IMG/VR virus record: IMGVR_UViG_3300020043_004032
Coordinates: 1 to 26,271 of that record
Length of the DNA: 26,271 nt
Source of the DNA: a virus
Taxonomy: Duplodnaviria; Caudoviricetes
Reading direction: 5' to 3' (one strand)
Translations under genes and position numbers: made by a program
The notes under the pieces: model-generated
Told to the model about the DNA's origin: nothing
The model's database searches: none
What the model saw: only the letters and a program-made list of their open reading frames with translations
Part shown: one piece after another, positions 3 to 26,269 of the stretch
Numbering within the stretch: the first letter of the stretch is position 1
Layout: each line of letters starts with the position of its first letter

Positions 3-536
3 GTAAAAAAGGGATGGGATAATGAAAGACCGCAAATGGAATACTTCACTGAGTTATTCAGGGTTTCAAAGGAGCAAGTTATATGGGGTGGTAATTACTT
101 TGCCGATTTACTTCCAGCTTCACGGTGTTGGATTTATTGGCGTAAAGTAATGGGTGGTGATTTTGCTGATGGTGAACTTGCCTGGACTTCATTTGATAAA
201 GTTCTAAAGGAGTACACTAAGAGAAGTGAAACATTTGATAGGATACACCCGACTCAAAAACCTATTGAATTATACGACTGGCTTTATTTGAACTATGCTA
301 CTGCAGGAATGAAGATACTGGACACTCATTTAGGCTCAGGTTCAAATAGAATTGCCGCATATAAAAACCGCTTACACTTTGTCGGGTTTGAGATTGATGA
401 AGAATACTTTTATATGCAAGAGGGAAGATTCGAAAAGTTTCTACGTTCACCTACTCTTTTTAGTATTCCCCGTGCGGTGGGGGTTTTAAATTCAAATGCA
501 CCTACACTGAACTTTGAACAAAGCACAGAACTATGA
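3..536 (+). CDS. DNA methyltransferase, N6A/N4C beta class (5'-partial)
   Basis: Frame is open from base 3 (VKKGWDNERPQMEYF). Motifs include IWGGNYF, HPTQKP, ILDTHLGSGS (SAM-binding motif I) and GFEIDEEY. The catalytic DPPY motif would lie upstream of the window. The last ~22 codons lie in the repeat arm. Confidence 0.9.
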   Translation, partial: VKKGWDNERPQMEYFTELFRVSKEQVIWGGNYFADLLPASRCWIYWRKVMGGDFADGELAWTSFDKVLKEYTKRSETFDRIHPTQKPIELYDWLYLNYATAGMKILDTHLGSGSNRIAAYKNRLHFVGFEIDEEYFYMQEGRFEKFLRSPTLFSIPRAVGVLNSNAPTLNFEQSTEL

Positions 537-565
537 CGCAAATTTTATTACTCATACACGTTGTT
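470..565 (+). repeat. Cassette-like right arm 1 (CCGTGCGGTGGG ... CACTGAACTTT ... GTT)
   Basis: The 12-mer at 470-481 is identical to the reverse complement of 25894-25905. CACTG(A/C)ACTTT sits at +35 and GTT at +93 in both copies. Confidence 0.75.
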
Positions 566-666
566 ATGTGCAGTGTGACGGGCGCGGTGGCAAAAGGTGT
601 GAGCGTGGGCAAGTGCGTAGCTCCGCTGGAAACCTTTTATTGTGGGAGGAACATTGCACATAACAA
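561..666 (+). repeat. Hairpin spacer 1 (GTT..AAC)
   Basis: TTGTTATGTGCAGTGT (561-576) pairs with ACATTGCACATAACAA (651-666), 15/16 plus one G-T. Inner stems AAAAGGT/ACCTTTT and AGCG/CGCT. Confidence 0.85.
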
Positions 667-4087: not shown

Positions 4088-4834
4088 TTAGTTAAGTTTT
4101 ATTTCTTCATTACCAAACACGGCATAGATGGAGTTGCCACGCTTTACGATTTTACCTTCCTGCTCAACCGGAACTTCTACAGGCTTTGCCATGCTTACAA
4201 ACTCATCGTATATCTCCATGCGGCCGCACAACTGCAGCGGCCCCCAATGGTCGCCAGATGTCATGCGCTCATAGCGTGAGGGGTCGTAATTTGAAATACC
4301 GGTAACAAAATTGTCTGTGTTGACGGGATGCCCCAACGCATTAACTAATGGTACTCGGGTGTCGTTTAATGAGTGTGCAAGCCGGTAGGGAATTTTAAGA
4401 TTCGTTCCCTTCTCGCTTATCGCGCTGGCTAATCCTACAACCATAGTTGGCACGTGCTTTGGTTCCTGATTGGCGTACCTTAACGCACCACCACCACCTA
4501 AACTCCAGCCCATAAGCATAAACGGACGGCCCTGAAGAACCTCGTCTAAAAACTGGTTGATATACGAAATATCCCAATTTTTTGCAGGTAGTTGAGGAGT
4601 GAGTATCGTTAAATCAGTGCGCTTGAAAATATCAGGGTACTTCCATGTGTATGTTTGCCAGCCATTACGACCAAATGGCCCTTCGCTGAGTAACTTATGC
4701 AGGTCTGTTCCACTCTGGTCAACTCCATGAAGAAATACAACCACGTTCGGGCCTGTACCCCATTCCCAATAACCGATTCCTGAGCCGGTTTTCTTTTGGG
4801 TGAGTGTTACGCCTTGTAGTGTGTAGGTTACCAT
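4088..4834 (-). CDS. Alpha/beta hydrolase (esterase-like)
   Basis: VVFLHG oxyanion region, GWSLGG nucleophile elbow, HSLND (Asp) and GDHW (His). ATG 4834 overlaps the end of the upstream gene. Confidence 0.85.
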   Translation of the reverse strand: MVTYTLQGVTLTQKKTGSGIGYWEWGTGPNVVVFLHGVDQSGTDLHKLLSEGPFGRNGWQTYTWKYPDIFKRTDLTILTPQLPAKNWDISYINQFLDEVLQGRPFMLMGWSLGGGGALRYANQEPKHVPTMVVGLASAISEKGTNLKIPYRLAHSLNDTRVPLVNALGHPVNTDNFVTGISNYDPSRYERMTSGDHWGPLQLCGRMEIYDEFVSMAKPVEVPVEQEGKIVKRGNSIYAVFGNEEIKLN

Positions 4835-19737: not shown

Positions 19738-20568
19738 TTAAATGTGGTTAATTGGTTGGTAAAATTTAATTAGCTCACTTGCTTTGAGTGCTTTTGGCGG
19801 CTCCGCTTGGCCAGTGGTATTATCCGGCTTGCCTTTAGTTTGCTGTATATTCAAAGTTGGTGTTACCCAATTTGAGCCTCTTTTAACTGCGCTGCCCTCG
19901 ATAATCTTGGCCTCTGTTACTGCCCAAAAATATCCGGCTGCAAGCGCATCATCTTTGTTAGCGATTTCATCAAAGTACTTTTCCCAAATCGAAAACTCTT
20001 TTTCATAACGGTCATCATTAACAGCCAATTCAATCTTGACATATTGCATACCAACTGAATGCTGGTTTACTTTTCCTGTCCGGTACTTCTCGAACATGAA
20101 TTCGTTTTCTTCCTTGTCGATTATAGAATCGAATATTAGAGCCTGAGTTTTGCCTTCATAATTAATACCCATCTCATGCCAACTCATCTGCTTTGTAAAC
20201 GCTTTCACATTGTCAGAAATAGTACCCCTGAAATTGAATTGATGTTCTTGAATCAATGAAAACTTACCTTCCTTTAAAGACTTGTTCCATAGTTGATCCA
20301 GATGAACATCTCCGTGTGAGTCAAATAACTTTGTAGTGTTAATGATTGACCTTACCTTAATTTGAGTTGCATCAGAAGGTATTTGATAAACGCCAGAATC
20401 GTCAGCCTTGATAACAGAATCATCTTTATCAAAAATCAATTGAGTAAACGAAACAGCATCAGCCTCTTTGGTTGCGCTTTTCTTTTGAGAAATAAGTTTA
20501 GACTTATTTGCTACCAAATAGCCTATTAACTTTTCCTTATCTGCGAACTCTGGTAATTCGGGTTTCAT
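19738..20568 (-). CDS. Prohead maturation protease (HK97-type)
   Basis: DSHGD, EHQ, HSVG and IIEGSAV..GSN motifs. Directly upstream of the capsid gene. Confidence 0.85.
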   Translation of the reverse strand: MKPELPEFADKEKLIGYLVANKSKLISQKKSATKEADAVSFTQLIFDKDDSVIKADDSGVYQIPSDATQIKVRSIINTTKLFDSHGDVHLDQLWNKSLKEGKFSLIQEHQFNFRGTISDNVKAFTKQMSWHEMGINYEGKTQALIFDSIIDKEENEFMFEKYRTGKVNQHSVGMQYVKIELAVNDDRYEKEFSIWEKYFDEIANKDDALAAGYFWAVTEAKIIEGSAVKRGSNWVTPTLNIQQTKGKPDNTTGQAEPPKALKASELIKFYQPINHI

Positions 20569-20699
20569 TTCTTTACAATTTGTTTTTCTTTGACAATCTT
20601 CTCGCGGTCTGATTTTATTTTATTGATTTCTTTTACACCAAACCTTTCAGCCATCCTATCAATAGAATCTCGCATAGACGCCTTCTCCTTTCTGTTCAT
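20565..20699 (-). CDS. Small basic protein, 44 aa (not in ORF track)
   Basis: MNRKEKASMRDSIDRMAERFGVKEINKIKSDREKIVKEKQIVKK*. TGATG overlap upstream and ATGA overlap with the protease start. Confidence 0.75.
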   Translation of the reverse strand: MNRKEKASMRDSIDRMAERFGVKEINKIKSDREKIVKEKQIVKK

Positions 20700-20842
20700 C
20701 ACTCTTGAGGTAAAAGATGTTTAGGGTCTATCGGGTCAGCGTGTTTTATTGCGCTTTTCTTTTGGGCGATAAGCATAGACTTATTAGTGATTATCCAATC
20801 AACCAATTTTGACTTATCAGCAAATTCAGGAATAGCTACCAT
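20699..20842 (-). CDS. 47-aa paralog of the protease N-terminus (not in ORF track)
   Basis: MVAIPEFADKSKLVDWIITNKSMLIAQKKSAIKHADPIDPKHLLPQE*. 21/32 identical to protease PEFADK..KEAD, and overlaps both neighbours. Confidence 0.8.
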   Translation of the reverse strand: MVAIPEFADKSKLVDWIITNKSMLIAQKKSAIKHADPIDPKHLLPQE

Positions 20843-24652: not shown

Positions 24653-25000
24653 TTATTTGGTCATATTATCAATTGTTAATTTATTATGACAACAATCACA
24701 AGTAGACTTGTTTTGCCCTTCCAATATTACACCGTATTGATTTGGTTGATTTTCGGGGTCTGTTATTGCTTGAATAAGTGAACATAGATTGTTTACTACA
24801 ATATAGTAATCATGCGAATCTACACAGACTATTGGCGTATAATCTCCATCGTATCCTTTTTTTGCGTCAGTTTCCGCTGATTTTAAAATACTTAGAATTT
24901 CATTTCTAAGAATTGTTTCATTGTCTGTTTTCATATTATTTAGTTTGTTAATTGAATCACTCATTAGGGTTTCAATTGGTGTTAGGTCAAATTTTTCCAT
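24653..25000 (-). CDS. Hypothetical protein (cassette payload)
   Basis: 115 aa. The ATG directly follows the arm border AAAAAAGCG. Confidence 0.75.
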   Translation of the reverse strand: MEKFDLTPIETLMSDSINKLNNMKTDNETILRNEILSILKSAETDAKKGYDGDYTPIVCVDSHDYYIVVNNLCSLIQAITDPENQPNQYGVILEGQNKSTCDCCHNKLTIDNMTK

Positions 25001-25083
25001 CGCTTTTTTAATTTTTATTTTTAAAATGCCAGTGTTTCAAAGATAGTGTGAGTTCGCCACAAAACGACAACATACACCTGTTC
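25001..25083 (-). repeat. Cassette-like left arm (83 nt, from the spacer AAT to AGCG|ATG)
   Basis: Same position and similar length as arm 25662-25748, with a CACACT..TTT core, an AT-rich tract and a GCG|ATGGAA end. Confidence 0.6.
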
Positions 25084-25232
25084 ATTGGCAGCAATATTTT
25101 GCGCTCTGAGGTGTGGCTTCCATAACCCCGCAAAGCCCCGCTGCTCAAACCCTACGCTCACGCCACACTCGCCAACCCTTCGCAAAATACAGCCGTTGCC
25201 GACACACATGCGAACGCTCACACTCTGCCAAC
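25084..25232 (-). repeat. Hairpin spacer 2 (GTT..AAT)
   Basis: TTGGCAG/CTGCCAA termini, TATTTTGCG (25095-25103)/CGCAAAATA (25181-25189) and GTGTGGC/GCCACAC. GC-rich. Shares GTGTGAGCGT with spacer 1. Confidence 0.75.
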
Positions 25233-25323
25233 AACCGCTATAAACAATGGCCTTAGTTCTGCTCTTCGTGGGACGGTTCATCTGTTAAGTCGGTTTTAAT
25301 AAATAATTTTTCCAGCCGCACGG
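25230..25323 (-). repeat. Cassette-like right arm 2
   Basis: CCGTGCGG border at 25323 and GTT at +91. Pairs with the left arm 25662-25751 through a perfect 20-bp and an 11/12-bp inverted repeat. Confidence 0.85.
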
Positions 25324-25501
25324 TGAAGGGAGGCAATTCCATCCAATTAGTTACATAGTGAAGTTGTTCGCTATGAGTAACCCATTCATTTTTCCAGTAT
25401 TGAGCAACATGGTAAAATACATTACCGTTTTCAATAGTCACTACCAACACATCTCTATTGTTGTTAGGAACAAACTTTTTAACATCAGTCCAGTTTTCCA
25501 T
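25253..25501 (-). CDS. DUF551-like phage protein (cassette payload)
   Basis: MENWTDVKKFVP...DVLV...VTNWMELPP pattern. Start re-assigned to ATG 25501. The last ~23 codons are encoded by the arm. Confidence 0.75.
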   Translation of the reverse strand: MENWTDVKKFVPNNNRDVLVVTIENGNVFYHVAQYWKNEWVTHSEQLHYVTNWMELPPFTVRLEKLFIKTDLTDEPSHEEQN

Positions 25502-25661
25502 AAGGTATGTATTCAAATGATTTAACTTTTGGTTGTTTATCAAGCTGAGCAAGCCAAGTTCCAATTTTACCTCGGTTGTCTTTTACGGGTTTCATCCATT
25601 TTTCTCCATCCCAATACATAACTTTGGTTCCCCCATTTAATTTATAATATCCTTCTTCCAT
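25485..25661 (-). CDS. Hypothetical 58-aa protein (cassette payload; not in ORF track)
   Basis: MEEGYYKLNGGTKVMYWDGEKWMKPVKDNRGKIGTWLAQLDKQPKVKSFEYIPYGKLD*. The ATG directly follows the arm border AGCGCG. Confidence 0.75.
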   Translation of the reverse strand: MEEGYYKLNGGTKVMYWDGEKWMKPVKDNRGKIGTWLAQLDKQPKVKSFEYIPYGKLD

Positions 25662-25751
25662 CGCGCTAAAAATTATTTATTAAAACCTTAGTTTATCATT
25701 CTATTGAAAGTGTGTGCGTTAGTCCGGCCACTGTTTAAACATTCGTCCGTT
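25662..25751 (-). repeat. Cassette-like left arm paired with right arm 2
   Basis: AAAAATTATTTATTAAAACC (25668-25687) is the exact reverse complement of 25292-25311. GGCCACTGTTTA (25726-25737) pairs with TAAACAATGGCC (25241-25252). Confidence 0.85.
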
Positions 25752-25812
25752 GTATGCAAGCCGCCCAAAGTCTTTGCCTTCCAATAAACAGTGTGGGCGG
25801 CCAGCATACAAC
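25749..25812 (-). repeat. Hairpin spacer 3 (GTT..AAC)
   Basis: GTTGTATGCAAGCCGCCCA (25749-25767) pairs with TGGGCGGCCAGCATACAAC (25794-25812), 17/19. Confidence 0.88.
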
Positions 25813-25905
25813 ACTGTGTTTGTGCTATTGAAAAAAGCGTTGAAGATTGCATTTCATAGAAAGTGCAGTGAGCAAAATTAATAACTAAAATCACCCACCG
25901 CACGG
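25810..25905 (-). repeat. Cassette-like right arm 3
   Basis: CCGTGCGGTGGG begins 7 nt after the upstream stop. CACTGCACTTT at +35 and GTT at +93, the same register as arm 1. Confidence 0.8.
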
Positions 25906-25912
25906 TTAAGAG

Positions 25913-26269
25913 TTATTCCTTAGTATGGGTTTCAGTTAGTGATTTGTTAACATTAGGCTGAATCCATCTGTTTTGTGAATCGTAGTATCCGGTTTGTGTT
26001 TCATTATCAAAAACAGTCTTTCTAAATTCGGTATTTCTAACCAAGCCAAGGGCTACACCATTAGCAAATGTGGTTTTATCTTTTTCAGCCTGTAATTGAT
26101 ACTCAAGAGTTTTTACTTTCAAATCACGCTCTTGGATTTCGCAAGCCTTTTCACGGGCTTCAAGTGCAGCATTTCGCTCATCAAACTTTTTGTAGTCCGC
26201 AATTGTGGCTTCCAATTTAGTTACGTATTGGTTACGGTTGCTAAGTTGTTCCTCAAGTTGTTTGATTTT
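25913..26269 (-). CDS. Coiled-coil hypothetical protein (5'-partial; cassette payload)
   Basis: Frame is open to the window edge (KIKQLEEQLSNRNQYVTKLEATIADYKK...). Confidence 0.75.
   Translation of the reverse strand, partial: KIKQLEEQLSNRNQYVTKLEATIADYKKFDERNAALEAREKACEIQERDLKVKTLEYQLQAEKDKTTFANGVALGLVRNTEFRKTVFDNETQTGYYDSQNRWIQPNVNKSLTETHTKE

Follow-up and report, generated by a model that had tools for sequence, protein, structure and literature searches.

An integron-like cassette array with genes inside attC-like sites in a tailed phage

Organization of the two array ends

The stretch of DNA analysed here (the window) spans 26,271 bases and is a linear virus record, estimated to be about 74% complete. 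Profile matches place terminase, portal, capsid, tape measure, amidase and methyltransferase genes in it, and related arrays suggest that the phage has a Bacteroidota host. An array near 25 kb lies upstream of the terminase small subunit gene, and a second array end occupies positions 1-695 on the opposite strand. Among terminase relatives, array sites were present in 3 of 43 stretches upstream of the terminase versus 0 of 54 downstream control stretches; at 3 of 43, we rejected the idea that the array is a fixed trait of these relatives. Elsewhere in the window, a 47-aa ORF repeats the N-terminus of a 276-aa ORF of the prohead region (20699-20842 / 20459-20508; 50-nt repeat, 82% identical). 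The features of the two array ends are as follows.

25810-25905, minus strand: right arm of the upstream long site, whose left arm would lie past the contig end
25749-25812, minus strand: empty body A, a strong hairpin, part of the upstream cassette
25085-25749, minus strand: complete cassette, 665 nt between two putative AA|C(T) crossover points, comprising the long site and empty body B
25230-25751, minus strand: long attC-like site, AAC to GTT, 522 nt, outer parts 64 + 62 = 126 nt
25668-25687, minus strand: left arm of the inner perfect repeat, 20 bp, A/T-rich, followed by GCG and the ORF1 start codon
25485-25661, minus strand: payload ORF1, 58 aa, weak match to phrog_5066, with a 98% identical copy in phage contig L214
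25253-25501, minus strand: payload ORF2, 82 aa, weak match to DUF551 below the cut-off
25292-25311, minus strand: right arm of the inner perfect repeat, with the CCGTGCGG motif (25323-25316) directly before it
25084-25232, minus strand: empty body B, GTT to AAT, 149 nt, GC-rich, pairing at its ends only
24998-25086, minus strand: left arm of the next long site, whose right arm is absent from the contig
24653-25000, minus strand: payload ORF3, 115 aa, no family match, the last unit ahead of the terminase small subunit gene
3-565, plus strand: second array end, with an N6/N4 DNA methyltransferase ORF (3-536, 5' end open) and a right arm (470-565)
563-664, plus strand: empty body C, a hairpin, with a near-copy as the last body before the recombinase gene in L252
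662-695, plus strand: terminal attI-like docking site, AA|C at 663|664

The original prediction for this locus placed the ORFs in the loop of an AAC..GTT palindrome between mutually complementary arms. Both pairings that it described are present, a perfect 20 bp (25292-25311/25668-25687) and 11 of 12 bp (25241-25252/25726-25737), as are the minus-strand copies of CCGTGCGG at 25316-25323 and 25898-25905; a third copy, on the plus strand, occupies 470-477. Taken alone, the 20-bp repeat is modest evidence, since 5 of 100 whole-window shuffles reach 20 bp when self-overlapping palindromes and any distance are counted. The decisive evidence for the fold-back layout is the recurrence of its arms in metagenomes. 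A scan with a 20-base right-arm pattern returned 28 loci, 26 of which carry the same right arm, and in 18 of the 28 a partner repeat lies 236-511 nt upstream, around other genes. Further copies, and the gene-in-loop arrangement itself, were thus borne out. The 522-nt site is a standard attC-like site of ~124 nt, split mid-way by a perfect 20-bp stem that encloses two ORFs. ORF2 runs through the CCGTGCGG motif and the inner right repeat and stops just ahead of the outer stem.

The intervals between sites were expected to be hairpin spacers. This holds for body A, which folds far better than shuffled sequences (z -5.6 and -6.2), but not for body B, in which the ends alone pair (z 0.0 and -0.9). 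Both lack ORFs as predicted; rather than separating units, however, such an interval is the cassette's own self-complementary body and travels with the site upstream of it.

Units at the contig borders are partial here. The ORF of the upstream unit (25913-26269) is open at its 5' end, and relatives in at least four runs join the end of ORF3 to a right arm. A full-length homolog of the methyltransferase ORF lies within an 826-nt site in L230. Three different cassette ends precede a docking site of the 662-695 type in the window, L221 and L237. In the window this docking site lies where a convergent gene ends, beside the lysis region, and it recurs in L221 and L237; Polaribacter phage P12002L has its own terminal site in the equivalent position (L261, about 29165-29235), present twice in that genome. 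The outer arms of the window's long site (25749-25726, 25252-25230) form a mixed pair, the left matching the right-arm type of L216 and L231 and the right matching the left-arm type of L214 and L218. A TAnnTTTG octamer (25043-25036), presumably akin to the Bacteroidota -7 promoter box, lies in the left arm that precedes ORF3.

Two cassette types and exchange of units at AA|C

We collected 51 non-redundant phage sites with a strict site caller, taking sites of at least 240 nt as long; the window's own site (score 31) falls below the cut of this set, and two long calls are possibly merged units. All 30 long sites (252-1279 nt) hold an ORF of at least 58 aa and are followed by a body of at most 210 nt. 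Such a short body follows 5 of the 21 compact sites, and a longer one the other 16. A gene comes after most compact sites (about 75-130 nt), while long sites carry one or more genes in a central stem-loop and are then followed by an empty body. The wider integron-like system has two cassette types, of which the gene-in-loop layout is one.

A perfect inner repeat of at least 12 bp is found in 19 of 29 long sites, compared with 3% of mismatched arm pairs, and its sequence takes many different forms between units. The outer parts sum to 114-126 nt in 18 of the 20 long sites with an inner repeat, close to the modal length of compact sites (~124 nt). Because the outer parts keep this length, a long site appears to be a normal site opened at its midpoint. 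Both arms covary, and in some compact sites the start codon already lies in the loop, with the ORF continuing through the right arm. Shuffling the inner repeat did not lower predicted outer-stem pairing (18 sites: higher in 2, lower in 2; p 0.73), so a role as a thermodynamic clamp is unsupported; the role of the stem may be geometric, kinetic or exerted in RNA, or the stem may be a by-product of template switching.

The payloads are diverse. Thirty-six loop proteins fall into 35 clusters, carried by few arm families. Among the 30 that were scanned, 22 had no PHROG match, 2 were methyltransferases, 1 was a pyrophosphatase and 5 belonged to families of unknown function. Arms are at least 90% alike between units, and chimeric arm pairs occur, the window's included. 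Similar payload proteins at L215:4985-5320 and L237:470-808 sit in different arm families, and payloads and arms therefore seem to reassort.

Several observations concern the wider distribution of these elements. Three host arrays (L307, L311 and L312) carry a repeated 94-95-nt site and a 36-nt empty hairpin body before their gene cassettes, so empty bodies occur in chromosomes too. The arm family appears once in a Saccharibacteria MAG (L244, at the end of a 2.3-kb contig), possibly mis-binned phage DNA. Of 5 matches to an 18-base arm pattern in genome contigs, a single one was real, and it lay where a short MAG contig ends. A long perfect inverted repeat at L248:5597-6924, recovered twice in both orientations, is possibly an assembly artefact. 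Five pattern scans of viral contigs returned almost entirely chance matches: the first gave 1 real locus among 117, three gave that same contig alone and one gave none.

The 665-nt unit is found in three contexts, the window, L214 and L221. L214 is a 73.5-kb phage whose gene content is unlike that of the window. Its copy of the unit, at ~95% identity, comprises the left arm, ORF1, a portion of ORF2 and the last part of body B, and has a 213-nt internal deletion. The cassette sits at AA|C within an ORF of L214, with no target duplication, and deleting the 452 nt between its two AA|C(T) points restores an open frame. A natural protein (P0002) is 97% identical to the downstream half of this ORF and continuous across the insertion point, and so represents the intact allele of the empty site. 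The target has no arm homology, just AAC and a loose half-site, and the insert begins at the first base of the long site.

Other junctions change at the same triplet. Body B is followed by five different sequences in the window, L214, L219, L221 and L223, switching exactly after AA, and loose contig ends fall at 25080-25086 in at least 4 of 8 runs. In the pairs window/L221 and L224/L226, the same long site has a different upstream neighbour and the same downstream one, one partner's left end being damaged. L219/L225 gives a clean upstream switch, with one long site behind two different upstream bodies. L227/L242 switches at the GTT end, and this pair is better read as a probable chimera formed by recombination inside a shared methyltransferase gene. 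From these comparisons a site and its downstream body form one cassette (25749-25085), and the crossover falls at AA|C where the left arm starts, read on the gene strand. On the plus strand this is the G|TT foreseen by the original prediction; it is not, however, at the GTT after the right arm. In L224, a short shared sequence links body B to the end of ORF3 (compare window 25205 and 24719); this join is a decay product of the same array.

Exact steps are also visible among cultured Polaribacter phages. Seven of the 10 Freya records were compared, with Freya_10 as the reference. Freya_1, 5, 8 and 9 carry deletions whose ends overlap in AAC alone (3-4 nt), an additional unit of about 470 nt is present at the terminal attI-like site of Freya_6, and the length of Freya_2, compared at its end only, is consistent with a fifth deletion. 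Gene shuffling, as originally proposed, is thus supported by related phages in which units were gained, lost or inserted at a conserved triplet (L214, the body B junctions and the Freya isolates). A blastn comparison of the array with cultured phages gave nothing relevant, and the RNA run X15 yielded four short pieces only, which are not evidence of expression. Excised circles had also been anticipated, and no circle junction appeared among the matches listed in 7 contig sets; the one run of raw reads (X24) contained 0 reads from this stretch.

The four Freya deletions all have their breakpoints away from long sites, which weakens the case for long sites as substrates; that case draws mainly on L214 and L219/L225, both metagenome assemblies. 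The long sites might then be passive, the compact ones alone being real, and be moved in larger blocks or by homologous recombination between arms, much as the PeSL modules whose recombination is described as shuffling T4-type genes (PMC2839356). Arms that are nearly alike between units, chimeric pairs and 35 payload clusters spread over few arm families would all be expected on that account. It is harder to square with L214, whose target lacks arm homology and whose insert starts at a long site's first base, or with the covariation of both arms and the retained ~124-nt outer length, and we consider it unlikely. The reading that we prefer is exchange of both cassette types at AA|C.

A short tyrosine recombinase beside related arrays

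The arrays of L216 and L232 terminate at a conserved site, immediately followed by the gene for a 276-aa tyrosine recombinase (P0001), and a conserved AA|CAA site precedes the recombinase gene in L216, L232, L248, L250, L252 and L253. A conserved attI-like site thus closes these arrays, with the recombinase gene immediately after it. As at an attI docking site, varying cassettes abut the equivalent site in the Freya phages, and the Freya and Leef integrases (32-35% identical) also follow arrays. Relatives of the recombinase were found on 5 distinct viral contigs, 4 of which have the same docking site; 3 have called upstream cassettes, and 2 have less than 600 nt of flank.

The recombinase falls below the cut-offs of IntI, XerA, XerC and XerD (166.8 bits against a cut-off of 265 for TIGR02249). 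It has PF00589 and SAM_4 domains, and its best solved relatives are archaeal XerA proteins. Residues 171-195 of P0001 span residues 175-241 of IntI4, and the catalytic motif spacing is 58-59 residues in the short enzyme versus 100 in IntI, ~41 residues shorter; the C-terminal insertion of IntI (I2 helix) is thus lacking. A quick-method tree with weak deep branches and only two distant outgroups places 13 IntI proteins on one supported branch with the short enzymes outside it.

In a sample of 201 genomes of the phylum, centred on a Hymenobacter genome, 69 encode homologs of the short enzyme. Arrays were called beside 9 of 20 fetched host homologs, upstream of shorter recombinase forms and downstream of N-terminally extended ones. 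The original prediction assigned the enzyme to the host or to DNA outside the window. Consistent with this, the recombinase adjoins related arrays and was not found in the 74%-complete window, nor in G001 or G002, all three incomplete, nor in P12002L. Plasmids carry further homologs: pHH1107 (L322:3956-5977) encodes TnpF, which is 44% identical to the recombinase, immediately upstream of tet(X3), the interval between the two genes holding a 48-nt AAT-to-GTT hairpin (4748-4795), and a Myroides plasmid (L323:7950-9928) pairs a 31% identical homolog with an IS91-family transposase in a resistance-gene cluster.

The AAC-first strand folds better in 44 of 47 phage sites and 25 of 30 host sites, in a list that includes a few mis-called duplicates. 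When orientation was set by the recombinase gene, independently of folding score, this was so for 12 of 13 sites in four host loci. Of 17 phage gene bodies, 16 lie on this strand; of 22 in hosts, 21 lie on the opposite one. Because the same strand folds better in hosts despite the opposite ORF direction, a DNA substrate is favoured for the outer stem, and covariation together with the strand bias suggests that the recombination substrate may be a folded single strand. That the arms are mainly RNA structures bracketing a gene, as a processing stem or translational fold-back control with mobility secondary, is very improbable: in phages the coding strand is the one that folds better, an A-rich stretch ahead of the start codon is covered by the inner left arm and predicted DNA folding is unaffected by the inner repeat, but host arrays have the opposite gene direction, an RNA role leaves exact AA|C junctions unexplained, and no Rfam family matches.

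Movement by a canonical integrase is a further alternative, in which these are unusual attC sites acted on in trans by the host's IntI, the short recombinase being a mere neighbour or acting at the docking site only. IntI exceeds its cut-off in 67 of the 201 phylum genomes, the overall AAC/GTT geometry is identical, and IntI1 is reported to recombine P12002L_attC2 (PMC9892861), which we find to be that array's terminal, docking-type site. The IntI arrays in these genomes, however, have their own sites with 2-3 extra bases; P12002L_attC1, a compact site and the sole folded member of this family tried with IntI1, is reported to have failed (PMC9892861); and two near-complete phages with arrays (91% and 99%) carry the short enzyme as the only one of the two. 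IntI and the short enzyme co-occur in 26 genomes against about 23 expected, the level of chance. Movement by host IntI is thus an improbable explanation.

We propose that the window contains array ends whose units recombine at AA|C; the probable enzyme is a short XerA-like tyrosine recombinase, which would act on folded single strands. The window phage would obtain its recombinase from the unsequenced part of its genome, from its host or from another phage. One strand would be exchanged and the product resolved by replication, as in integrons, between partners sharing AAC alone, by an enzyme with no need for extrahelical bases. With phage ORFs on the recombined strand, phage transcription would read through the array. 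Payloads might be swapped between arm pairs by homologous recombination or in a capture step at GCG..GG motifs.

Relation to integrons and other mobile systems

The system is integron-like in behaviour but is not an integron by its integrase, extra bases, site length or orientation; its enzyme assignment and single-strand mechanism are probable readings of the comparisons above. Integrons exchange one strand, resolved by replication, and also insert at secondary sites. Shared with them are fold-back AAC..GTT sites, a G|TT crossover with three common bases, self-complementary cassette ends, secondary-site insertion and a docking site that adjoins a tyrosine recombinase gene at its 5' end, the gene lying on the strand that is recombined. 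The differences lie in the enzyme, which lacks the IntI insertion, in sites without 3'-arm extrahelical bases, in long sites that hold ORFs, and in phage ORFs on the recombined strand.

Sites of the attC class are defined by two or three extrahelical bases on the R''-L'' arm (PMC2727003), and the IntI insertion is described as contacting them (PMC3053210; PMC2727003). By one aligner, 3'-arm extra bases occur in 40 of 40 IntI-linked sites (at least 2 in 39) versus 0 of 30 long phage sites; of the compact phage sites 4 of 21 have them, and of the host sites 1 of 27. Since the insertion contacts the extra bases and both are absent here, site and enzyme lack matching features. In an integron-like subgroup the insertion is described as essential though not fully conserved (Smyshlyaev et al., PMC8138268). 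Published attC lengths are 57-141 bp (PMC5371416), with no gene inside, compared with 522 nt in the window. An integron cassette places a top-strand ORF before its attC, an orientation that the host arrays share and the phage arrays reverse. The IntI-linked arrays that we recovered (L337-L349) often have uniform attC sites of 112-119 nt, and IntI is far commoner in these genomes than reported for RefSeq Bacteroidetes.

These comparisons bear on how folded-site recombination works. The IntI insertion and extrahelical bases are held to enable it, and this system appears to lack both, as a matched pair. Whole genes in a site loop bear on how cassettes are assembled and on the length limit of a folded site; a DNA methyltransferase cargo would matter for escape from host restriction; and the exact steps between cultured Freya isolates make the mechanism directly testable. 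IntegronFinder is reported to find hardly any complete integrons in Bacteroidetes (10.1101/2022.02.28.482270), and current tools may therefore be overlooking a large gene-shuffling system. More tentatively, and with rather less confidence than in the exchange proposed above, Bacteroidota and their phages may share a second integron system parallel to the classical one, in which an insertion-less recombinase reads bulge-free folded sites of fixed ~124-nt geometry. The phages would have reversed it, opening the site at its midpoint so that genes of whatever length can be placed behind a perfect stem. This could be a visible route to new cassettes, and the enzyme may resemble a pre-IntI state.

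No known MITE, IS or ncRNA family accounts for the arms. Inner repeats differ between units, the L214 insertion lacks a target duplication, and Rfam gave 0 matches at the gathering threshold in the window and five array loci, four weak E-value matches lying far below the cut-offs. Flavo-1, a candidate RNA, had no Rfam support and was rejected. With XerA, XerC, XerD and IS91-associated recombinases the phage enzyme shares length and domain set, and it has 30-44% identical plasmid homologs, one beside an IS91 transposase. It differs from XerA, XerC and XerD in lying below their curated cut-offs, in heading cassette arrays and in partner sites without a homologous spacer. The PeSL of T4-type phages likewise are repeated intergenic modules that drive phage gene shuffling, but are described as promoter and terminator units, unlike these cassettes (PMC2839356); here breakpoints fall on one triplet, arms pair across a gene, and a dedicated recombinase lies beside related arrays.

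The closest described elements are CALINs, attC clusters reported in virulent phages by Qi et al. 2023 (PMC9892861). A CALIN, as called by IntegronFinder or HattCI, is an attC cluster with no integrase nearby; in the window, which is about 74% complete, no integrase was found. P12002L, one of the phages reported there, carries the present site family and methyltransferase cargo, and has no integrase; we called 5 sites in it, one of 403 nt with a 117-aa ORF. In the available text of that study the sites are treated as ordinary attC for IntI1, and loop genes, the short recombinase and the reversed polarity are not described. The word 'integron' is absent from the available text of the Freya isolation paper (PMC8776804), and a literature search, largely outside subscription papers, found neither genes inside attC loops nor this recombinase as a cassette integrase. 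The original view that the array matches no described element therefore stands for the gene-in-loop layout but not for the compact sites. By that search, phage attC clusters of this site family were already known, and what is new is the gene-in-loop layout and the short enzyme as a candidate cassette integrase.
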